Notes: generated from the letters alone by a model not told the origin. A stretch of 40,193 nt of DNA from an uncultured Elusimicrobia bacterium (GCA_964450975.1 CAYVFO010000006.1:1-40193), one strand, 5' to 3'. Numbered from the stretch's first letter, positions 1,233 to 25,658 are shown. Numbers and translations are program-made.

Positions 1233-9323
<8,091 letters not shown>

Positions 9324-9375
9324 GCTGGTTCTCTCCCTATGAGTACCACGACGACGTGCCTCAGGCGACGCCGTG

Positions 9376-9419
9376 ATTCTAGAAACTGTTGACCTGGATC
9401 AATAGGGACGAGGGGCCCA
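9376..9419 (-). promoter_or_regulatory. Palindromic operator TGGGCC-CCTC-GTCCC (9405-9419) plus -10 TAGAAT (9376-9381) for the giant gene
   Basis: 23-nt gap between motif and -10, identical to the gap at 1176-1219. Confidence 0.6.
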
Positions 9420-10065: not shown

Positions 10066-11424
10066 GTGAAGACGCTGCAGATCTATCTCGCCGATCTCAA
10101 GGAGCTGCTCAAGGCCCGCGACTTCGTGTCGGCGCGCACGATCCTCAAGGAGATCGGGCCGATCGATCTCGCCGACGGCTGGGACTACTTCGACGCCGAC
10201 GAGCGCGTCGCGATCTTCCGCCTGAGCACGCGCCAGAAGGCGATCCAGCTCTTCGAGGAGCTCGACGCTCCCCAGCAGGCCGAGCTCATCAACGGGCTGC
10301 AGCGCAAGGACGCGCAGGAGCTGCTCGACGACCTCGATCCCTCGTCGACGAGCCGCATGCTCCGCGACCTGCCCGCGCCGCTCGTCCGCCACTTCAACGC
10401 GATCATGAAGAAGGGCGGTCAGGAGTGCGTCAAGCAGTTCCTCCAGTACCCGCCGAAGTCCGTCGGCGCGCTGATGCGCGGCCGCTGGGTCACGCTCGAG
10501 GAGAAGTGGACGACGAAGGCCGCGCTCGACCGCGTGCAGTACAGCACGCGCCTGCGCCGCATCGAGGAGACGCACCTCGACACCTTGATGGTCGTCGACG
10601 CGAAGAACCGGCTGCGCGGGACCGTCGGTCTCAAGTCCCTCGTCGTCGCGCCGAACGACATGCACGTGCGCGACCTCATGGATCCCGCGCCGCGCACGCT
10701 CTCAGCCGAGGCGGACCAGGAAGAGGCGGTCAAGCTCTTCACGAAGTACAAGCTCAAGAGCGCCCCGGTCGTCGACAGCGAGGGCTCGCTGCTCGGCGTC
10801 GTCGTCTACAAGGACATCTTCGCGATCGCGAGCGAGGAGACGGAAGAGGACTTCGCGAAGATGGCCGGCTTCGCGCGCGGCCCCGCGCGCACGGTCCTCG
10901 GCAGCGCCGGCGCGCGCATCCCGTGGCTCGTGATCACGTGCTTCGGCGGCGTGCTCGTCTCGCACGTGATCAAGAACTTCGAGTCCACGCTCTCCCAGAT
11001 CATCGCGCTCGCGAGCTTCTCCCCCCTGATCGCGGGCATGGGCGGCAACGTCGGCGCGCAGACCGCGACGATCATGGTCCGCGGCCTCGCGACCGGAGAG
11101 ATCGCCCCCGAGGACGAGAAGAAGGCGATCCTGCGCGAGATCTCGATCGGACTGCTGCTCGGTCTCGCGTACGGCGTCGTCGTCGGCTCGATCGCGGGCC
11201 TCGTCTACCACGACCGCTACGGCTGGTGGTTCTCGGTCGTCGTCGGCCTCTCGATGGCGTTCTCGATGCTCGTCGCGTCGATCATGGCGTCGCTCGAGCC
11301 GTTCGTGCTGCGCAAGCTCGGCGTGGACCCGGCGACCGCGACGGGTCCGATGATCACGACGACCACGGACCTGCTCAGCAACGCGTTCTACTTCACGCTC
11401 GCGAGCTGGCTGCTTCTGCGCTAG
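10066..11424 (+). CDS. mgtE: Magnesium transporter MgtE
   Basis: MgtE N-domain, CBS pair, membrane domain with GMGGNVGAQ and DPATATGPMITTTTD; TGtTAGAAT -10 lies 6 nt before the GTG. Confidence 0.93.
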   Translation: MKTLQIYLADLKELLKARDFVSARTILKEIGPIDLADGWDYFDADERVAIFRLSTRQKAIQLFEELDAPQQAELINGLQRKDAQELLDDLDPSSTSRMLRDLPAPLVRHFNAIMKKGGQECVKQFLQYPPKSVGALMRGRWVTLEEKWTTKAALDRVQYSTRLRRIEETHLDTLMVVDAKNRLRGTVGLKSLVVAPNDMHVRDLMDPAPRTLSAEADQEEAVKLFTKYKLKSAPVVDSEGSLLGVVVYKDIFAIASEETEEDFAKMAGFARGPARTVLGSAGARIPWLVITCFGGVLVSHVIKNFESTLSQIIALASFSPLIAGMGGNVGAQTATIMVRGLATGEIAPEDEKKAILREISIGLLLGLAYGVVVGSIAGLVYHDRYGWWFSVVVGLSMAFSMLVASIMASLEPFVLRKLGVDPATATGPMITTTTDLLSNAFYFTLASWLLLR

Positions 11425-12056
11425 CCGCCGCGCGACTGCAGGACGCCCTGGAACTCCGCGTCGGGCTCGGCGCGCAGGTCGTACCCCAGCTCGAGCTTCA
11501 GCGTCTCGGCGTGCAGCATCAGGCGTTTGGCGCCCCCGATCGGCCGCGGGGGCGGGCCGTAGCGCGGGTCGCCGAGCACGGGGTGGCCCTCGGAGCTCAG
11601 GTGCGCGCGGATTTGGTGCTTGCGGCCCGTCGCCGTCCAGACGCGCAGCAAAGTCGCGCCGCGCAGAGCGCGCTCGACGCGCCAGAACGTCTTCGCCGGC
11701 TTGCCGTCGGGCGCCGGCGCGACGCGTCCCGAGCTGAACTCGCGCAGAGGCTTGTCGATCTCGCCGCTGCCGGTCATCGAGCCGAGCACCGCGACGAGAT
11801 ACTCCTTCTTGGCGCGGCGCTGCTCGAACTCCATCGAGAGCAGGCGGTGCGTCTCCGCGTCCTTGGCGAAGACGAGGATGCCGCTCGCGTCGAGGTCGAG
11901 GCGGTGCACGACCCAGATTTTCTTGCGCAGGCGGCGCTCGATCTCCATGTTGACGGCGACCGCGATCTCGCCGCGGCCAGGGATGGTCGGACGGCCGCAC
12001 GGCTTGTGGACGGCGATGATCTTGTCGTCCTCGAAGACGACCGCGGCTTCGATCAT
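11421..12056 (-). CDS. RluA-family RNA pseudouridine synthase (211 aa)
   Basis: HKP.G, VHRLDLDASG (catalytic Asp), TGRKHQIRAH, GDPRYG, LHA; ATG 12056 overlaps the upstream stop (ATGA). Confidence 0.92.
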   Translation of the reverse strand: MIEAAVVFEDDKIIAVHKPCGRPTIPGRGEIAVAVNMEIERRLRKKIWVVHRLDLDASGILVFAKDAETHRLLSMEFEQRRAKKEYLVAVLGSMTGSGEIDKPLREFSSGRVAPAPDGKPAKTFWRVERALRGATLLRVWTATGRKHQIRAHLSSEGHPVLGDPRYGPPPRPIGGAKRLMLHAETLKLELGYDLRAEPDAEFQGVLQSRGG

Positions 12057-14782
12057 GGCGCTTCTGAGCGGCTCAATCCGAAGGCCGGGCGGTAGCGCGA
12101 GCCCGCGAGCCAGACGAGGCGCGGACCGTCCGCGTACCGGACGGCGCGGACCGTCGCGCCCCAGAAGATCGTCCCTTTCGCGGCGACGGGGGCGTCGCCG
12201 CGCGAGGCGTCGGCGAAAGTCTCGACGGCGGGCGCGGGCGCCTCCGGCAGGGCGGCGACGGCGCCGCCGAGGACGCGCCGCAGGAACGCCGCGCGCCGCG
12301 CGACGGAAGGGCCGTCGGCGAAGAGCAGCGCCGCGTTCACCGAGAGGACGCCGGCGTCGAGGCGCGCGGGGACCGGGTCGAAGTGGACGCCGAGGCGCAG
12401 GCCCTTCGCGGCGGCGAGCCCCGCGGCGAGGTCGAGCAGGCCCGCGTCGAGCGGCTTCTCGGCGCTCGGCGTCGACGCGAGCGCCCGGGCGTGCGCGTTG
12501 CCGGCGCGGATCGCGGGAATCATGAGCGTGACGCCGCCGCGCGCCCAGCCGAGGAAGCCGCGCAGGGACCGGACGAACGCGACGACGGCGGAGGGCGGCT
12601 TGCCGAGGCCGGTCGTCATCTTCTCGCCCAAGGCGAGAACTGACTTGTAGATGTTTCCGTTCGCGTTCGCGCCGGCGAGGACGTTCACCGGGTCCGCGGA
12701 CTCGAGCGTCGCCTGCGGGGCCTTCGCGCCCGGCGGCAGGATGTCGGCGACGATCATGCCGTTGAAGTTCACGAGAGACGCGTACTTGCCGTTGGCCCAC
12801 GAGCCGGTCAGCAGGCGGTCCGACAGCGCGATGCTGCCGTCGTGCGTCATGTGGATCATCGTGTTGTTGGCGAACGCGACGTCGCCGGGCGTCTCCTCGA
12901 ACGCCGTCTGCTGCGCGTGATCGTTGAGGTTGAGCCAGACGGGCTTCATCCAGGAGCGCAGCCGCGGGAGCGCCTGGAGGCGGTCCGCGCCGCCGGACTC
13001 GGGGAACAGCTCCGCGGCGAGGGCCTCGTAGCCCTCGGGCACGCCGCCGCCGTAGTGGCCGTGCGCTCCGAGCACCGCGTCGCGCGAGAACACGCCCTGA
13101 GTCACGGCCCAGAGGCTGCGCGCGTTGATGTCGTAGGACTCGATGACCACCTTCCAGTCCGCGGGATTCTCCTTCGCCTGGCGCAGAGCCGCCTCGACGA
13201 GGATGGCGAGCGAGTACGGCTCCTGGCCCGAGCCCATGCCGAGGCTCTTGAGCACGAGCGTCCGCTCGCCGGCCTTCGCCTTCGCCGCGATCATCCTGTC
13301 GAGCGAGCGGCGCGTCGCGCCCGCCCAGAACTTGCGGTCGCGGAAGAAGCCGCTGAACATCTCGCCGGAGTGCATCGGCAGCAGGTCGAGGCGCTTGCCG
13401 AGCTCCCGGCGCTCGGCCGCGCCGTCCTCGGAGAGGGCCCAGCCGGCGTACGCCTCGGGCGTCGCGAAGCCGAGCTCGGAGGCGCGCGCGCGCAGCGACG
13501 GCGCGATCGCGTCCTCGAGAACGGCGGAGAGCTCGGCGGCGTCCTTCGGCGGCTCGGGGAGATCGGTCACGGCGGCGGCCACGGCGGCCGCGAGCTTCGG
13601 CTCGGAGATCAGCGCCTTGGAGAGATCGGCGAGCGGGCGGGCGTCGCCGCGGACGGGCGCGCGCTCGAGCCACTCCTGCGTCACCCGGCGCCACGGCAGG
13701 AGCTCCGCCGAGACGCCGCTGCGCGCGAGAAGCCACGGATAGAACGAAGGGAATGTGATCCGCATCACGAAGCGCCCCGCTCGCGTCGACTCGAGCTTCC
13801 GGGAGATCCCCGCGGGGACGTTCGAGCGCCACTCGACCACGCCGGACTTCGTCACGACCGCGAAGCGGGCGTTCTTGCCGGCGGAAGTCTCCAGATCCAT
13901 GGGCGACGGATATTCGGAGTGGACGGAGTAGGCGCCGAGCCTGGTCTCGGGATGATTGTGGATCGCGATGTCGTAGTCGCCCCACTCGCCCGAGACCTCG
14001 TGACGGCCGCCGCGCGCGGCGAGCCAAGCTCCGTCGGAGCGGCGGCGGTACAGGAACACCTCGTACGGGAGCTCGGCGAGAGCCTCGAGGCTCTTGGGGG
14101 ACGGGACGAAGCTCAGCTCGAGCGGCGCTCCGGACGGAGAAGCCCCCAGCTCCGCCAACGCCGCCTTCATCCGCGAGCCGTCGGCGTCCGTCCTGCCGGA
14201 GGACGGCGCGGACTTCTTGGCGGCGACGAGCTTCTTGAAGGGCTTGAGCGGAGAGAACCACCGCTTGCCGTCGCCGGAGGTCTCGGCCGACGGAGCGGAG
14301 AGGACGCCGTCCGCGAGCGCGGCGGGCGCGTCGAGCTGCGCGCGGGAGTTGAAGTCTTTCTCGGCCGCGACGGAGGACTCGCCGGTCCCCATCTTGGACG
14401 TGTCGAGCGAGGGCGCGGCGAGCGTCTCGATGAGAGCCTTCGGCGCGGCGGCCTTGCCGGGCTTCACCGGCACGGCGGCCTTGACGGAAGCCGCGCCTTT
14501 CACCGGAACGATCGCCTTGCTCGCCGCCGGTTTGAGCGGAACGAGCGCGGAGGGCACGGCGGCGATCAAGGACGGAGAGGCCGTCGGCGTCAGAGAAGGA
14601 GCGGACAACGACAGGCCCGGCACCAAGGCGGAGTTCGAGAGCTGGAGCGGGACGACGTTGACTCCGGCCTGGATTCCCGGCACCGGAGCGGGAGCGGCGA
14701 GCTCGACCTCGACGCGCACGGTGGCGGCCGCCGCCGGGATGGCGGCGCAGACGAGGAGGACGGCGCCGAGGGGAAACGCCAT
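12053..14782 (-). CDS. Exported 909-aa protein with a JAB/MPN-like metallo-motif and a CheR-like SAM methyltransferase domain
   Basis: Signal peptide MAFPLGAVLLVCAAIPAAAA; YE...HNHP...PSPMD (JAMM-like); FFRD, SLGMGSGQEPYSLAI, SYDIN, LNLN, DVAFANNTMIH align with CheR motifs. Confidence 0.8.
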   Translation of the reverse strand: MAFPLGAVLLVCAAIPAAAATVRVEVELAAPAPVPGIQAGVNVVPLQLSNSALVPGLSLSAPSLTPTASPSLIAAVPSALVPLKPAASKAIVPVKGAASVKAAVPVKPGKAAAPKALIETLAAPSLDTSKMGTGESSVAAEKDFNSRAQLDAPAALADGVLSAPSAETSGDGKRWFSPLKPFKKLVAAKKSAPSSGRTDADGSRMKAALAELGASPSGAPLELSFVPSPKSLEALAELPYEVFLYRRRSDGAWLAARGGRHEVSGEWGDYDIAIHNHPETRLGAYSVHSEYPSPMDLETSAGKNARFAVVTKSGVVEWRSNVPAGISRKLESTRAGRFVMRITFPSFYPWLLARSGVSAELLPWRRVTQEWLERAPVRGDARPLADLSKALISEPKLAAAVAAAVTDLPEPPKDAAELSAVLEDAIAPSLRARASELGFATPEAYAGWALSEDGAAERRELGKRLDLLPMHSGEMFSGFFRDRKFWAGATRRSLDRMIAAKAKAGERTLVLKSLGMGSGQEPYSLAILVEAALRQAKENPADWKVVIESYDINARSLWAVTQGVFSRDAVLGAHGHYGGGVPEGYEALAAELFPESGGADRLQALPRLRSWMKPVWLNLNDHAQQTAFEETPGDVAFANNTMIHMTHDGSIALSDRLLTGSWANGKYASLVNFNGMIVADILPPGAKAPQATLESADPVNVLAGANANGNIYKSVLALGEKMTTGLGKPPSAVVAFVRSLRGFLGWARGGVTLMIPAIRAGNAHARALASTPSAEKPLDAGLLDLAAGLAAAKGLRLGVHFDPVPARLDAGVLSVNAALLFADGPSVARRAAFLRRVLGGAVAALPEAPAPAVETFADASRGDAPVAAKGTIFWGATVRAVRYADGPRLVWLAGSRYRPAFGLSRSEAP

Positions 14783-14847: not shown

Positions 14848-15213
14848 GTGACGAAGGCCTTAATCCTCGTGGTCGAAGACGAGCGCCCCGTGTACGAGAT
14901 CCTCGCGCGCGCGCTCGAGGCGAAAGGCCATAACGCCCGCCACGCCGAGAGCGCCGAAGCCGCCGAGGCCGCGCTCGCGAGCGGCTCCTTCGACCTCGTG
15001 CTGCTCGACCACGTGCTTCCGGGCGCGACCGGGATGCAGTCGCTCTCGCGCCTGCGCGCGCTCACCAAGGCGCCCATCCACATGATGAGCGGCTACACCG
15101 GCGACGACACCCGCGAGGACGCCCTGCTGCTGGGCGCGGCGGGCTTCATCCCGAAGCCGCTCGATCTCGCGCAGGTTTTCGCCGTCGTGGACGCCCTCCC
15201 GGAGAAGAAATGA
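14848..15213 (+). CDS. Single-domain response regulator (receiver)
   Basis: LVVEDE, DLVLLD, MSG, FIPKP receiver motifs. Confidence 0.9.
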   Translation: MTKALILVVEDERPVYEILARALEAKGHNARHAESAEAAEAALASGSFDLVLLDHVLPGATGMQSLSRLRALTKAPIHMMSGYTGDDTREDALLLGAAGFIPKPLDLAQVFAVVDALPEKK

Positions 15214-16500: not shown

Positions 16501-17190
16501 CTACTTCCAGTTCGAGCAGCGCCGGTACACGGCGTCGTACGGGTCCGGGCGGTCGAGGCGCGCCTGGCCCTCGGCCTCCTCCTTCTCGAAGCGCGCGTAG
16601 ATGGGGTCGACGACGCGCGACAGCGCCCGCTTGAGCTCCTCCGCGACGGACGCGTAGTCCGTCGCGATCATCGGCGACGAGCGCGTGGGCAGGCCCTCGG
16701 CGCGCGACAGCGCGTCCTCGAGGTCGCGCGCGAGCTGCGCCGCGTGGACGCGAGCGTAGCGGCCGTGGCCGCGCTCGTGCGCGAGCACCGCGTCGTGCTC
16801 GCACGTGCCCGGCGGGTACTCGCGGGGCACGTGGATGACGGTCGAGGCGACGCGCACGTCGAGGATGACGTCGTCGAACCACGCCGAGACCGCCGTGTCT
16901 CCGATCGACGTCTTGAAGCTCGTGTGCGTCGCGAGCTCGTGCTTGATGATCGTGATCCCCTGGGTCTTGAGCCCGCGCCGCGCCGCGCCGGGCAGGCCCG
17001 CGATCTCCTTGAGCGCGAGATCGCGGCGGATCTCGAGCGGGGCCGCCGACGCGGAGACGCGGAAGCGGTAGAAGCGTCCCGCGGTCCCGCGCGGCGCGCG
17101 GCGCGCGGCCTCCACCGGCTTATCCTCGACGATCGCCGGCCCGCACGACGCGGCCGCGGCCAGCGCCGCGAGGAGGAGCGCGCGCCTCAC
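16501..17190 (-). CDS. Putative lipoprotein with an HExxH zinc motif (DUF922-like putative protease)
   Basis: GTG 17190 overlaps the upstream stop; MRRALLLAALAAAASC lipobox-like; VLAHERGH. Confidence 0.7.
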   Translation of the reverse strand: MRRALLLAALAAAASCGPAIVEDKPVEAARRAPRGTAGRFYRFRVSASAAPLEIRRDLALKEIAGLPGAARRGLKTQGITIIKHELATHTSFKTSIGDTAVSAWFDDVILDVRVASTVIHVPREYPPGTCEHDAVLAHERGHGRYARVHAAQLARDLEDALSRAEGLPTRSSPMIATDYASVAEELKRALSRVVDPIYARFEKEEAEGQARLDRPDPYDAVYRRCSNWK

Positions 17191-17852
17191 AGCGCCGCCT
17201 CGAGCGTCGACAGCGCGAGCAGCCAGCGCTCCTCGCGGCCCGCGTCGTCGAAATCCTCGTACGTCATCTCGCCCGAGGGGCTCTTCGCGAGCACGGCGCG
17301 GGCGCCCTTCGAGCGCAGCGCGCGCGGCGCGCGCGCCGCGAGCTCCGCGACGAGCGCGCGGAAGTTGAGGTCGGCGCTGATCGCCATCTTGTCGCCGAGC
17401 GCGGCGTAGTCGAAGTCGGCGGCCAGCAGCCGCAGGCGCCTCGCGGGGTCGACGAACACGAGCTCGATGAACTCGGGCCGCTTCCCCCCGCCCTTGCGCA
17501 CGAGCCCGGCGGAGAGCACCGCGAGCTTCGTCCACGACAGCCGGCCGCCGGGCGCGTCGAGGCCGTCGTTGGAGAGCTCCGCCTTCAGCACGGCCTGCGG
17601 CGGCGGCGGCGCGTCGAGCAGGCTCGCGGGGACCGCGATCGCGGCGCTGCCGGCGGCCGTGAGCTTGGCCGCGAGCGCCTCCGCCGTCTCGGCCGGAGTC
17701 GGCTCGAAGAGGATGCCCCAGCCGCGGCGCACGACCGGGAGCCACGTCTCGGCGGAAAGCCCCGCGTGGCCGCCGATCGCCCCGGCGACGGACTTGGGCT
17801 CGAAGCGCGCGGGCTCCCGCAGCAGCACGGCGTGCGGGGGCCGCTCGGTCAC
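17187..17852 (-). CDS. Hypothetical protein (221 aa)
   Basis: Translationally coupled on both sides (GTGA overlaps); typical codon usage. Confidence 0.75.
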   Translation of the reverse strand: MTERPPHAVLLREPARFEPKSVAGAIGGHAGLSAETWLPVVRRGWGILFEPTPAETAEALAAKLTAAGSAAIAVPASLLDAPPPPQAVLKAELSNDGLDAPGGRLSWTKLAVLSAGLVRKGGGKRPEFIELVFVDPARRLRLLAADFDYAALGDKMAISADLNFRALVAELAARAPRALRSKGARAVLAKSPSGEMTYEDFDDAGREERWLLALSTLEAAL

Positions 17853-21793: not shown

Positions 21794-22098
21794 CCCTTCG
21801 CGCCCCAGCCCGCGCACTCGCGCACCGGCAAGCGCGGATACTTCGCGTAGGACGCCTCGGCTTCCGCGCGCCCGCACAGGAAGATCGCGCTCCCCGTCTT
21901 GGTCTTGAGCGTCTTGGCGTGCGCGCAGTCGAGACACTTGCCCACCATCGACGCGATCTCGGCCTTGAGGCACGAGGGACACAGGCAGCCCTCGTCGGTC
22001 ACCGGCATGACGGGCGGCAGCTCCGCGCACCAGCAATGTCCCTTGCCTTCGACGTTGCCGCAGCCGAACTCCGCCTTGCACCGGACGCACGTTTCCAT
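21790..22098 (-). CDS. Cysteine-rich CWC-family protein with a second Cys-rich module (102 aa)
   Basis: C..C...F.C, CWC, CLC..CL, then C..C...C...YPRLPV..C.G; ATG overlaps the upstream stop. Confidence 0.8.
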   Translation of the reverse strand: METCVRCKAEFGCGNVEGKGHCWCAELPPVMPVTDEGCLCPSCLKAEIASMVGKCLDCAHAKTLKTKTGSAIFLCGRAEAEASYAKYPRLPVRECAGWGAKG

Positions 22099-25000
22099 CA
22101 GCGGCGCTTCTCGTAGCGCGCCAGCGGGCGCGCGCGGTCTCCGCGGAAGCCGGGCGTCTGCTCGCGATCGTGCGCTCCCGCTTCGCGCGAGACGCGCGCG
22201 CCGAGGAAGTCGGCGAGCTCGCCGGCGGTGAGCGTTCCGTCCTTGTCCGCGTCGGCCTCGCCGTCGAGACCGCGCAGCGCGTACCACGTGAAGAGGCCGT
22301 GGCGCTTCGCGGGGAACGCCGAGCTCACCTGCGAGCCCGACGCCGCCGAGAACAACGAGACCTTGCCCGGAGGAACGACCGGCTCGACCTTCAGCGACAA
22401 AGGGCGGGCGTCGGCGATCAGCGGGCGGCTCTCGCGGTCGGCGCCCGAGAAGCACGCGTCGAGCCAGACCGTGACCGACTTCGCCTTCGAGCCGTCGAGA
22501 GACTTGAGCATGTCGTCGATCGGGAAGCCGGTCTCGACGGCGTAGTTCGGATCGCCATCCTGCGGGACGAGGTACGCGCCTTTGCCGTCGAGCGACGGCG
22601 CTCCGTGCCCCGCGTAGAACACGAAGACCTCGGACTGAGGGCCCACGCGCCGCGCGAGCCAGCCGCTCGGCGAGAACGCCTTGCGCAGCTCGGCGAGCGT
22701 CACGCCCTCGTCGAGGTAGAACATGTGGTTCGCGTCGTCGGGAACGCCGAGCACGCCTGCCGCGAACGCGCGGAAGGCGGCCGCGTCGCGGCGAGCGTGC
22801 GAGACGCGCGGCGCCTTAGGATAGTCCTCGACGCCGAGAATCACGGCGTAGGCCTCCGGACGCGCCGCCCCCCGGGCGGCCGGCGTCTCGATCGCCTCGG
22901 AGGAGCCGGCTTTCGGGAGGTCCTTGCCCTTGACGACGAGCTCGCGCGCGGAGCCGAGCGGCCTCGACAGCGGCACCTCGACGGGCGCGTCCCAGGAGTC
23001 GACGCCGTCGCCGAGCGCCGCGCGCAGCCGCAGCGTCCCCGCCGCGGACGTGTTCGAGAAGACGGTGAAGCGCGCCGTCGCGGAGGCGCCCGCGGCGAGC
23101 GCGCCGAGCGTCCGCCGCGCCTCGCCCTGCACGAACGCGTCCGCGTTCGCGCCGGCGAGAGTAATCGCCGCGGCGCCCGCCGCTCCCTCGCCGTCGTTGC
23201 GCACGACGACCGCGATCTCCGCGAGCTCGCCGGGCGAAACCACGCCGTCGCCGCCCGAATCGGATACTTTGATCGACGCGACCGACAGCTTCGCCCCCCG
23301 CCGCGCGCGCGTCTCGAAGACCATCTTGATGCCGCCCGAGGCGAAGCCGTTGGCGTCCTCGGCGGAAACGGTCAGAGATCGCGAGCCGTCGGCCGCGCCG
23401 GCGAGAGCTTTGACCGGGATCGTCACGGTCTTCGACGCTCCCGGGGCGATCTCGCCCGCGAAGTGGCGCGCGGCATAGCTCAAGCCGTCCGCCGCCGCCG
23501 GCGCCACGGCGACCGAGGCGCCGTAAGACGCGCCGGCGCCGGAGTTGGAGATCACCACCGAGATCTTCGCTGTCTCTCCCGCGCCGAGGCGCGCGTCGCC
23601 GTCGGCGTCCGCGAACTCCGCCTTCACGTCGAGCTTCGCCGGCGCGGCGGGCGCGGTGCGGGACCGCTTCACCGTTCCGGCCCCCGACGACCAAGTGAAG
23701 AGCTGCCCGAGTTCCTTGTCCGACACCGACAGGCGCAGGTCCTCGCGGACGGGCTTGCCGTCCTCGAGGCGGTGCCGGTAGCTCGCCTCGGCGCTCATGC
23801 GGCGGGACTTCGCCGCCTGGGCGTCCTTGCGCGCGATCGCGAGCTTCACCGCCCGCGTGGAGCCGTCGATGTCGACGACCGCGTCGAACTCCTCGGCGTC
23901 GGCGTCGTAGCTGCCGACCGTGATCGCGACGGGCTCGTTGATCTCCTCGTCGAGCGCCGCCTGCAGCGCCTCGCGCACTTTGCCGGCCTCGTCGCGGTCC
24001 TTCGCGTCGTAGACCGCGCCGATGCGCGCGGCTTCGGCCGCCGCTTCCCCGCGCTCGAGCGCGTCCTGCTCGTCGGCCGCCTTCATCCGCTGCGCGTACT
24101 CGGCGGCGGACTCGAACTCGCCCTTCGGCGTGCGGCGGGCCTTGGCCTTGCCGGCGTAAATCTCCGCGCTGCTCTGCAGCTCGGTCCTGCGGCGGTTCGC
24201 GAGCCGCTCCTCGATCTCCTTCTTGCGCCCGGAGAGCGCGGCGATCGCCGCGCGCTGCAGCTTCCCGCGGCGCAGGCGCCACGCGCGTCCCCCGTAGCCC
24301 GCGAGCCAACGGCCGTCGGCCGTGAAGACCGGATCGAAAAAATAATCAGGGAAATGGAGGACGATGATCGCGTCGTACCGGAGATCGGTGAGATACCAGG
24401 ACCGCGAGTCGGTTCCGCTGGTCAGGAAGTACCGTTCATCCGGGCTGAAGAGCGCGAGGTAAGTGCTGAACTCGGGGAGACCGGCGACCCTGCGCCCGCT
24501 CGGGATCTCGTATACGGCGGAGAGGTACTTCGATCTCTCGTAGGATTTCAACGCGACGAGCTTCGACGAAGGCGAGAACAGCTGCTCATAGCTGGAGCGC
24601 ACGCCGAGGTCGGCGACGGTCGTTCCGGCCGTCAGATCTTTGATCGCCGCGCCGCCGCCCGCGTCGACGAGCATATAGCGATCGTCCGGCGTCGTTTGAC
24701 CGCCGTCGAACAGCGACTGGGGAACGGGCGTCAACTCGGGCATCGAGTAGGATTTCTTCCCGGCGGCGAGCCATTTCCCGCCGCCCGAGAATTTGACGCG
24801 GCAATACGTTCGGTCGCAGGCGCCGACCGTCTTCGACTTGCCGGTCTGAAGGTCGACGAGGACGATGTCGAGCGAGTTGTCGCCGTAAGCGAACCAGCGG
24901 CCGTCCGGAGTGTCGGACCACTCGGACGAGTTGCGGAGACGCCCCCTGTGGATCATGCGGCCGTCGGAGCCGTAGAGCTCGAAACGGCCGTCGCTCAAAT

Positions 25001-25658
25001 CGACGCGGCGATAATTCGGCGCGGGCCGGTAATTCCGGTCCAGCCCGGGCTCGACCGCCTGCGGAGGCGCCGTGCATACCGCGCCGAAGTAGCCGTCGCA
25101 GACCACTCCGAATTCGAGATCGTAGGTGGCCGGGTAGCCGCCCTTCTCCAGCGACTGGAAGAAAATCATGCGGGCGTCGGTCTCGAAGGGATATTTCCAC
25201 TTTCCGAGCGTCCGCTTCCGGTTTCCTTCGAACTCGAAGGCGACCACGTAGTCCCCCTCGACGGCGACGACGCGCTTGCACGAGCGGTCGCCCTTCCACG
25301 CCGCCGTCTTCGGCGACGGCGTGAAGCGCACGCGGCCGGCTTCGTCGAGCACCTCGAGCTTGTTGTCGACGACCCGGATTCTCGGGCAGGACTCCGCCTT
25401 GGCGGGCTCGATCATGACGGCCGTACCGCGCTCCAAGTCGACGATCCATCGGCCCCGGGTGCCGTAGTCGTTCTCCGAATAGGTCTCGATGCGGATCTTG
25501 CGGTTGCGCGTGCCGTCGAACACGACGCGCGCGCCGTCGAGCGGCCGCGTCTCGCTGACCGCCCCTCGGAAATCGTAGTCCCACTGGGGCTCGACGATGG
25601 ACTGCGCCGGCGCGGCGGCGGCGAGAAGCGAGACGAGGGCGAGTGTTCGGAGGGCCAT
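22098..25658 (-). CDS. Secreted caspase-family (peptidase C14) protein with beta-propeller, coiled-coil and Ig-like domains
   Basis: Signal peptide; repeated FSPD/TPDGRW blades; two Ig/CARDB-like units (D.DGD...GE...I.V.V.N.G.G); catalytic FYAGHG and LDACFSG. Confidence 0.88.
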   Translation of the reverse strand: MALRTLALVSLLAAAAPAQSIVEPQWDYDFRGAVSETRPLDGARVVFDGTRNRKIRIETYSENDYGTRGRWIVDLERGTAVMIEPAKAESCPRIRVVDNKLEVLDEAGRVRFTPSPKTAAWKGDRSCKRVVAVEGDYVVAFEFEGNRKRTLGKWKYPFETDARMIFFQSLEKGGYPATYDLEFGVVCDGYFGAVCTAPPQAVEPGLDRNYRPAPNYRRVDLSDGRFELYGSDGRMIHRGRLRNSSEWSDTPDGRWFAYGDNSLDIVLVDLQTGKSKTVGACDRTYCRVKFSGGGKWLAAGKKSYSMPELTPVPQSLFDGGQTTPDDRYMLVDAGGGAAIKDLTAGTTVADLGVRSSYEQLFSPSSKLVALKSYERSKYLSAVYEIPSGRRVAGLPEFSTYLALFSPDERYFLTSGTDSRSWYLTDLRYDAIIVLHFPDYFFDPVFTADGRWLAGYGGRAWRLRRGKLQRAAIAALSGRKKEIEERLANRRRTELQSSAEIYAGKAKARRTPKGEFESAAEYAQRMKAADEQDALERGEAAAEAARIGAVYDAKDRDEAGKVREALQAALDEEINEPVAITVGSYDADAEEFDAVVDIDGSTRAVKLAIARKDAQAAKSRRMSAEASYRHRLEDGKPVREDLRLSVSDKELGQLFTWSSGAGTVKRSRTAPAAPAKLDVKAEFADADGDARLGAGETAKISVVISNSGAGASYGASVAVAPAAADGLSYAARHFAGEIAPGASKTVTIPVKALAGAADGSRSLTVSAEDANGFASGGIKMVFETRARRGAKLSVASIKVSDSGGDGVVSPGELAEIAVVVRNDGEGAAGAAAITLAGANADAFVQGEARRTLGALAAGASATARFTVFSNTSAAGTLRLRAALGDGVDSWDAPVEVPLSRPLGSARELVVKGKDLPKAGSSEAIETPAARGAARPEAYAVILGVEDYPKAPRVSHARRDAAAFRAFAAGVLGVPDDANHMFYLDEGVTLAELRKAFSPSGWLARRVGPQSEVFVFYAGHGAPSLDGKGAYLVPQDGDPNYAVETGFPIDDMLKSLDGSKAKSVTVWLDACFSGADRESRPLIADARPLSLKVEPVVPPGKVSLFSAASGSQVSSAFPAKRHGLFTWYALRGLDGEADADKDGTLTAGELADFLGARVSREAGAHDREQTPGFRGDRARPLARYEKRR

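Follow-up and report, generated by a model that had tools for sequence, protein, structure and literature searches.

We analyzed a 40,193-nucleotide stretch of DNA from an uncultured Elusimicrobia bacterium (GCA_964450975.1 CAYVFO010000006.1:1-40193; hereafter, the window), centering on a gene, P0001, that lies on the minus strand at positions 12053..14782 (stop codon included) and encodes a protein of 909 aa. The source organism is represented by a metagenome-assembled genome from groundwater, G000, which is 81% complete. A first-pass annotation made from the sequence alone had described the product as a signal-peptide protein that combines a JAB/JAMM metallo-motif with a CheR-like methyltransferase. 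In the frame of P0001, the GC content at third codon positions (GC3) was 0.937, matching the expectation for a real gene at ~70% GC, and the proposed open reading frame (ORF) is confirmed. The boundary between the JAB and CheR parts (~13640) was spanned with 0 differences by one contig from each of two groundwater samples (public runs, one study): the X1 contig spans 12642-13826 and the X3 contig spans 13277-14346. Because contigs from two samples cross the junction without a difference, the fusion is real DNA and not an assembly artefact. The X3 and X4 contigs had gaps at 11702-11969 and about 12506-12639. Pieces of the leader, JAB, CheR, and C-terminal parts were also found at ~90% identity in a freshwater metagenome of a separate study. 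Among the public sequencing runs, no RNA run was listed as holding the P0001 gene.

The N-terminus of P0001 resembles a signal peptide (approximately residues 1-20, MAFPLGAVLLVCAAIPAAAA; 14723..14782; this and the following features of P0001 are all on the minus strand), as judged from its hydrophobicity and from the starts of homologues, with a putative cleavage site. Residues 1-26 are the sole hydrophobic segment of the protein. The N-termini of homologues consist of Met followed by Arg or Lys, then a hydrophobic stretch, and then an AxA-type end, so the signal-peptide reading of the first-pass annotation held up. On the strength of this segment and the pattern in the family, P0001 is probably exported. 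The segment is followed by a leader rich in Ala, Ser, Pro, and Val (residues 21-195; 14198..14722), with a composition of A 20%, S 13%, and P 12%. A motif in the leader, AAEKDFNSRAQLD (14330-14368), is kept across the family, also in members without the JAB domain. Matches of the family profile to LAMTOR1 in the PDB were rejected as spurious, since they were of low complexity and confined to the leader.

Residues 196-380 (13643..14197) form a divergent domain with the JAB/MPN+ fold, as identified by an AlphaFold2 model, structure searches, hhalign, and conservation. From the family alignment, the candidate catalytic residues are E241 (14060-14062) within YEVFLY (14048-14065), HNHP at residues 275-278 (13949-13960), and PSPMD at residues 292-296 (13895-13909); HNHP thus lies exactly at the coordinates first assigned to it, with the Glu upstream and PSxxD downstream. 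The candidate residue set E...HxH...S-x-x-D is complete in P0001 (E241, H275, H277, S293, and D296), and in the alignment of 19 sequences H275, N276, H277, P292, and D296 are invariant, with E241 nearly so. The AlphaFold2 model of the domain, based on the same number of sequences, had a predicted local distance difference test score (pLDDT) of 92.8 and a predicted template modeling score (pTM) of 0.88. With the all-against-all structure aligner VIA, Pyrococcus furiosus JAMM1 (PfJAMM1) was the best match (Z 6.9; root-mean-square deviation [rmsd] of 3.6 over 102 residues), and rows 1-19 were all chains of the JAB/MPN family (PfJAMM1, then Cap3, Rpn11, CSN5, RadC, and BRCC36), with cytidine deaminases next. 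The top rows of a Foldseek search of the PDB were likewise nearly all JAMM/MPN+ proteins, with PfJAMM1 the best (E 2.4e-2, probability 0.96) and Rpn11, CSN5, BRCC36, Cap3, AfJAMM, and AMSH among the others. The best-scoring structural neighbors are proteins of giant viruses and phages: BFVD, which holds predicted viral structures, gave 15 matches at E<=1e-3, the best being a giant-virus "deubiquitination hydrolase" (4.6e-6), and the matches include phage proteins annotated as metalloprotease, JAB, or RadC-like. We infer that these viral matches belong to Tox-JAB-2, an assignment that is ours and not the output of a tool. In the ESM Atlas, the JAB part led to unnamed viral clusters at 0.92 and to a Prok-JAB-bearing cluster at 0.89, which we treat as leads only.

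An hhalign comparison with 16 Prok-JAB segments from relatives placed a-HNHP...YPSPxDL of the target family in register with y-HSHPdaP-aWPSPfDL. The alignment requires an 8-residue insertion in the target family and has a local E of 1.7e-4 and a probability of 49.8%. By structure search, the JAMM/MPN+ enzymes, Prok-JAB (PF14464) among them, have the same fold (P. furiosus JAMM1 5ld9, Archaeoglobus fulgidus AfJAMM 1r5x/1oi0, and CBASS Cap3 9ild; Z 6.9, 5.4, and 4.8), and they have the same E...HxH...S-x-x-D set. P0001 differs from them in the 8 residues inserted between HxHP and PSxxD, in extra helices at both ends of the domain, and in the placement of the domain behind a signal peptide in a multi-domain protein; nor does it have a known ubiquitin-like partner. 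These results indicate that residues 196-380 are truly a JAB/MPN+ domain, if a divergent one, and that the candidate metal site is intact. By structure, P0001 belongs to the JAB/MPN+ superfamily, but to none of the curated JAB families. The JAB call of the first-pass annotation is thus borne out by structure search (PfJAMM1 at Z 6.9 and the viral Foldseek match at E 4.6e-6), whereas Pfam does not recover it.

The JAB domain is followed by a helical region (residues 381-466; 13385..13642) of five helices with pLDDT 81-94, which in the predicted model appears to occupy the position of the CheR N-terminal helical domain (CheR_N). Residues 467-682 (12737..13384) form the core of a CheR-type class I methyltransferase dependent on S-adenosylmethionine (SAM), as identified by Pfam, VIA, Foldseek, and motifs. 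The CheR motifs FFRD (13337-13348), GMGSGQEPYS, which is the SAM loop (13211-13240), SYDIN (13124-13138), WLNLND (12920-12937), and DVAFANNTMIHM (12848-12883) all lie within 12780-13390, the range first proposed for them. Pfam PF01739 matched residues 477-570 (E 1.1e-8; 35.2 bits against a gathering cut-off of 27), a match that covers only profile positions 3-90 of 195, i.e., the first half. A model of residues 381-909, based on 8 sequences, had a mean pLDDT of 74 with a disordered stretch at model residues 307-368. In VIA, this model matched CheR of Bacillus subtilis (5ftw, Z 19.5), Salmonella typhimurium (1bc5, Z 18.7), and Pseudomonas aeruginosa (5y4r, Z 17.7), with rmsd 2.2-2.8 over 178-186 residues. 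The closest of these has S-adenosylhomocysteine (SAH) bound and was fitted with rmsd 2.2 over 178 residues. The next chain after CheR was a generic class I methyltransferase at Z 10.5, and other methyltransferases scored <=10.5. The best ten matches in Foldseek were all CheR (E 2.9e-9 to 7.6e-7), and the full-length CheR alignments span 233-318 columns.

We also compared the motifs with canonical CheR, using P. aeruginosa CheR1 and a CheR domain from the same genome as references. Four features aligned with the canonical sequences, namely the arginine of FFRD, the G-x-G-x-x-E-P-Y loop, the Asp that follows strand 2, and the strand-4 motif D..F..N. Residues R481, S513, G515, G519, E521, Y523, and D551 do not vary among 8 family members, and within the clade the arginine, the SAM loop, and the strand-2 Asp are all invariant. 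Since the SAM-pocket residues are conserved, the SAM pocket is intact at the motif level, and the CheR call, which a destroyed pocket would have undone, was recovered by Pfam and by structure alike. The NCBIfam CheR equivalog NF007902 gave 10.3 bits against a cut-off of 435. P0001 is thus a member of the Pfam CheR domain family and not a chemotaxis CheR, because no receptor was found, the equivalog cut-off was not reached, and the protein has a signal peptide. The methyltransferase core is followed by a low-confidence linker (residues 687-748; 12539..12724) with pLDDT <50, corresponding to model residues 307-368, and by a C-terminal alpha/beta domain (residues 749-893; 12104..12538) with pLDDT mostly 66-95. 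This domain is common to stand-alone exported CheR-like proteins and aligns with the proteins of G037, G034, G032, and G031. No Pfam match and no usable ESM Atlas match were obtained for it. For the whole protein, phmmer gave no match among PDB sequences, and scans with PHROGs and PADLOC gave no match for P0001, P0003, or P0024.

We next considered the chemotaxis context. No match to MCPsignal or CheW was found in G000, an 81% complete genome whose incompleteness keeps this result from proving absence. Of 5 other genomes that carry the exported CheR clade, including four that are >=95% complete, none gave an MCPsignal match; controls were positive in 8 of the 14 reference genomes. Since neither MCPsignal nor CheW was detected in the genome, the methyltransferase would not serve the chemotaxis of the cell itself. 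The earlier statement that no chemotaxis genes are nearby stands in this respect, with the nuance that a receiver-domain gene adjoins P0001 at 14848-15213. The only other CheR domains of the genome are two in one 1518-aa frame on contig C28 (6222-9215; L002 and L003; 170 and 64 bits), which presumably encodes a non-chemotaxis signaling protein.

To place P0001 in its family, residues 196-380 were searched against 1.84 billion representative proteins, with 21 matches at E<=1e-3. Three of the 21 (P0029, P0031, and P0034) were dropped, being sums of weak repeats. The credible relatives consist of a signal peptide, an Ala/Pro-rich leader, and the JAB-like domain, usually followed by a module of ~200 aa with HEYTHWLQ (HExxH). 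Other tails include a nucleotidyltransferase (NTase)-like module with a C-terminal hydrophobic segment resembling a membrane anchor (P0021), with further modules elsewhere, and four proteins of ~300 aa have no tail module. Only P0001 joins JAB-like and CheR domains among the matches of this search. The family thus has a constant N-terminal part and variable tails (HExxH, CheR with the C-terminal domain, NTase-like, and others), as expected of polymorphic toxins. In total, 33 copies of the JAB-like domain were collected, of which 22 keep the E, HxH, and D residues and two are truncated fragments. P0020 (383 aa, from a metagenome) joins the C-terminal third of the JAB-like domain to a sequence with no relation to the HExxH tail of the family; this could be a chimeric assembly or a further module swap.

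Among 301 genomes sampled across the phylum, the JAB-like domain was present in 6 and the CheR module in 12; the latter was not detected in any of the 12 other genomes of the genus that were part of the draw. The CheR module with the C-terminal domain occurs alone behind a signal-peptide-like start in G037, G034, G032, G031, and G252, which belong to other genera. These stand-alone relatives are ~560-730 aa long and share 30-32% identity with the CheR and C-terminal module of P0001; the C-terminal domain is absent from shorter forms of ~360 aa. All five proteins scanned (G034, G032, G031, G252, and a short form) passed the Pfam CheR threshold, with clade scores of 35-45 bits. The neighbors of the stand-alone genes are housekeeping genes (AlaRS, SPFH, and TPR genes). 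A metagenome scan with the CheR alignment found 4 loci at 31-33% identity, and word-based searches for shorter or longer proteins with the CheR or JAB and CheR region, a weak form of evidence, returned none. The C-termini of stand-alone CheR-like proteins end in G-I-T/S-V-R-F (L009, L016, and L011) or VRGFY (L010); the alternating hydrophobic residues and the terminal aromatic residue resemble an outer-membrane beta-signal or a sorting tag, which is absent from P0001.

Both module types also occur within giant proteins of related lineages. In G311, which like G315 belongs to the Elusimicrobia lineages of ~50% GC, L056:466-16641 (+) encodes a protein of 5392 aa with a signal-like start, a CheR-like domain at 826-1014, and transketolase-like domains. 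In G315, L057:51-14759 (-) encodes at least 4903 aa up to the contig end, with one JAB-like domain (score 200.8), GH15, and GGDEF. P0032 (4823 aa) has three JAB-like copies, two of which have short, near-classical spacing, and its first copy overlaps a Toxin-JAB1 match with an E of 0.0066, which is below the cut-off.

We then examined the surroundings of P0001. Downstream lies a gene for an rluA-family pseudouridine synthase (11421..12056, minus strand; PseudoU_synth_2, 2.4e-25). The TGA of P0001 (12055-12053) and the ATG of rluA (12056-12054) form an ATGA overlap, and the coupling proposed earlier is therefore real with respect to both the overlap and the identity of the product. On the other side, a stand-alone receiver-domain gene (14848..15213, plus strand; Response_reg, 1.5e-21) is divergent from P0001 and is followed by a permease gene. 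The order MerR - MgtE - RluA - [leader+JAB gene] - receiver - permease - orf - OmpR is kept in six genomes of the genus. In these six syntenic relatives, no match to the CheR or C-terminal parts was found at the locus, and the proteins of the leader and JAB type listed from them carry the HExxH module as their tail. The CheR and C-terminal domains are present at that locus only in the genome of the window. That the JAB and CheR combination arose through replacement of an HExxH tail by a cassette from the signal-peptide-bearing CheR-like clade is shown, or at least strongly supported, by these results. In G009, the gene is absent and the receiver gene directly adjoins rluA; in G003, G014, and G022, rluA is flanked by other genes and the leader and JAB gene was not seen there. 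Because the gene is missing at the locus of G009 and was not seen in these three genomes, it is accessory.

Several other genes of the window were noted. A syntenic gene without a Pfam match (16501-17301, minus strand) encodes a product with a HERGH motif and adjoins the permease gene in the six relatives. A gene at 1233-9323 (minus strand; GC3 0.966) encodes a protein of 2696 aa, and the plus-strand ORF at 1236-9392 is its shadow. Behind a signal-like start, its leader of ~245 aa is rich in Ala, Pro, and Ser and is followed by a polytopic membrane domain of the M50 (site-2-protease-like) type that contains HETAH; ClpB-like double AAA+ domains (AAA_2, 5.7e-64) come next. The fusion is unusual, and its sequence is not similar to that of P0001. 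An ORF of 1186 aa at 22098-25658 (minus strand) has CARDB and caspase-like Peptidase_C14 domains (6.8e-9 and 8.2e-9).

We compared P0001 with known systems. Its methyltransferase domain matches CheR (1af7/1bc5, 5ftw, and CheR1 5xly/5y4r) at Z 17.7-19.5 with the FFRD, SAM-loop, strand-2, and strand-4 motifs present, but P0001 also has a signal peptide, a leader, a further domain at its C-terminus, and the JAB fusion. Tox-JAB-1 (PF15659) and Tox-JAB-2/DUF4329 are likewise divergent JABs outside a ubiquitin-like context in proteins bound for export, according to a survey of polymorphic toxins (Zhang et al. 2012, PMC3482391). Tox-JAB domains are C-terminal in RHS-type toxins with a dedicated immunity gene, whereas the JAB domain of P0001 is located mid-protein with no immunity gene seen, and P0001 gives no Pfam match to either Tox-JAB family. 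Polymorphic toxins resemble P0001 in their constant N-terminus, their interchangeable C-terminal modules, and their presence or absence among close relatives. They differ in that P0001 has no adjacent immunity gene, known trafficking domain, or spare cassettes, and its variation is between species at one syntenic locus. No Pfam family of the RHS, LXG, filamentous hemagglutinin, or type VI secretion system (T6SS) adaptor kind was found in P0001 or the scanned homologues. The Omnitrophota "Archaeovorins", giant exported proteins with many enzyme domains, are similar in that the related Elusimicrobia giants (~5000 aa) combine these module types with other enzymes, and the domains listed for giant proteins in a preprint include methyltransferases, SAM-dependent methylases, and peptidases (bioRxiv 10.1101/2023.11.21.568195). 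Unlike these giants, P0001 has 909 aa and two enzyme modules and has no known link to predation or cell-wall attack. In a narrow literature search, the first 300,000 of the 357,715 characters of the survey, and the representative search, we came across no account of exported CheR-like proteins or of an architecture that joins JAB and CheR.

The interpretation that we tentatively prefer, although we would put it at somewhat short of an even chance, is that P0001 is an accessory, Sec-exported modular enzyme or effector and not a chemotaxis component. Both enzymatic modules would then be active, and the protein would act beyond the cytoplasm of its producer as a protein-modifying exo-enzyme or effector. 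Given that SAM is a cofactor of the cytoplasm, the methyltransferase would presumably function only where SAM is present, for example in another cell; an exported CheR-type enzyme either acts in another cell, has some other SAM supply, or is non-catalytic. A number of observations weigh against this interpretation. Translational coupling ties the gene to a housekeeping gene, and the surroundings of P0001 and of the stand-alone CheR-like genes yielded neither a secretion or injection system nor an immunity gene or a conserved partner. The n-region of P0001 itself has no basic residue. SAM is not known to be available beyond the cytoplasm, so the cofactor supply of an exported SAM enzyme is not obvious. 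With respect to the JAB domain, the structural scores are moderate (best Z 6.9), the model gave no Foldseek match in the PDB at E<=1e-3, and no Pfam JAB model (PF14464, PF01398, PF04002, PF15659, or PF14220) matched P0001 at E<=10. The P0001 gene was also missed when the genome was scanned with PF14464 at E<=0.1, and neither NCBIfam nor PDB sequence searches recognized a JAB domain in P0001. The HxH histidines are gone in 9 of the 33 copies of the family, and the JAB domain is absent from P0002, which retains the leader and the CheR module. These degenerate copies, together with P0002, indicate that JAB catalysis is dispensable in part of the family, and they speak against a general role of the JAB domain as a releasing peptidase. 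Besides peptidase activity, the domain could have the nuclease activity that has been proposed for RadC-like and toxin JABs (PMC3482391). In the CheR-like module, a histidine is present where canonical CheR has the tyrosine of NVLIY, as in 5 of 9 other aligned sequences. We take this tyrosine and the FFRD arginine to be active-site residues of CheR, for which a literature search gave no source.

The histidine at the NVLIY position is also what could be expected if the CheR-like module were a non-catalytic binding or scaffold domain in an exported protein, with the JAB domain alone doing the chemistry. Such a module would remove the SAM-supply problem, and the Pfam match limited to half of the profile and the low NCBIfam equivalog score are compatible with it. 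However, the SAM loop, the strand-2 acidic residue, and the FFRD arginine are invariant in eight members that share 25-30% identity with the target (P0002 excepted), and invariance at such divergence is the pattern expected under selection for cofactor binding. The close fit to SAH-bound CheR points in the same direction, and we regard a non-catalytic module as quite unlikely. An enzyme resident in the envelope for the producer's own use, tethered by the leader in the periplasm or at the surface, with the JAB domain processing and the CheR-like domain methyl-esterifying its own envelope or surface proteins, is unlikely as well, if a serious candidate. Its locus is chromosomal and syntenic in the genus, the gene is co-oriented and overlapping with rluA, neither an immunity gene nor delivery machinery is nearby, and the usual partner module is an HExxH domain that is protease-like in appearance. 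Long Ala/Pro-rich spacers are, moreover, typical of envelope-spanning tethers. Against such a function, we know of no route that brings SAM into the periplasm; the gene's absence from the locus in G009, and its not being seen in G003, G014, and G022, mean that it is not essential; and the tail module is interchangeable, with the JAB site degenerate in 9 of 33 copies. The SAM problem would likewise disappear if P0001 were not exported at all and its N-terminus were a membrane anchor that leaves the enzymatic domains in the cytoplasm, acting on cytoplasmic substrates. SAM is cytoplasmic, the missing basic residue in the n-region would fit, and the nearby gene for the 2696-aa protein has a signal-like start and an Ala/Pro-rich leader, yet encodes ATP-dependent AAA+ domains behind a polytopic membrane domain. 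According to the survey, all prokaryotic JAB domains identified by 2012 were intracellular (Zhang et al. 2012, PMC3482391). In the homologues, by contrast, the n-regions are basic, the hydrophobic cores are short, and acidic residues (RVEVVPE) come after the AxA-type ends, a pattern that agrees with a signal peptide that is cleaved and leaves the C-terminus outside, and P0001 has no second hydrophobic segment that could return the domains to the inside. A cytoplasmic location thus has only a slim chance of being correct.

The remaining explanations involve other cells. We considered a polymorphic-toxin-like effector whose CheR payload, freed or accompanied by the JAB domain, gets into competing bacteria to mis-methylate the chemoreceptors there, an idea close to one that the first-pass annotation had raised as speculation. 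The constant N-terminal part, the variable C-terminal modules, the weak Toxin-JAB1 match (E 0.0066, below the cut-off) in the copy of a related giant protein, and the specifically CheR-like fold would agree with it. As no methyl-accepting chemotaxis protein was found in the producer, a toxin that targets chemoreceptors would spare the producer. The JAB clades Tox-JAB-1 and Tox-JAB-2 are known as toxin modules of polymorphic toxins (PMC3482391). Nevertheless, no immunity gene lies immediately downstream; rluA follows instead with a 4-base overlap, likewise in the six relatives. No RHS, LXG, T6SS, or similar trafficking domain and no orphan cassettes were found, nor was any delivery system, immunity gene, or target. 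The toxicity of altered receptor methylation is not obvious, and the word "methyltransferase" is absent from the first 300,000 of the 357,715 characters of the survey (PMC3482391). Such a toxin is therefore very improbable. Also improbable is a Sec-exported, protein-modifying effector family of Elusimicrobia, which would be the first of its kind, with the JAB-fold enzyme joined to swappable enzymatic payloads. Its CheR payload, a carboxyl methyltransferase, would methylate chemoreceptors or other coiled-coil proteins within another cell, making a protein O-methyltransferase the weapon or manipulation tool of an organism that itself has no chemoreceptors.

CheR and JAB enzymes are textbook intracellular enzymes. 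In the bacteria described here, in which no chemoreceptor was detected, both folds are found behind signal peptides and move as cassettes between small and giant proteins. Should the methyltransferase of P0001 be active, its function must lie beyond chemotaxis, which raises the questions of its SAM source and substrate; if it is inactive, it would be a clear case of reuse of the CheR fold as a binding module. In both cases, two sequence clades emerge that are overlooked or hardly recognized by current profile libraries: one of JAB domains with 8 inserted residues, and one of exported CheR-like proteins that have a C-terminal domain of their own. With its 909 aa, P0001 offers a simple and testable entry to the modular exported enzymes of uncultured groundwater Elusimicrobia.

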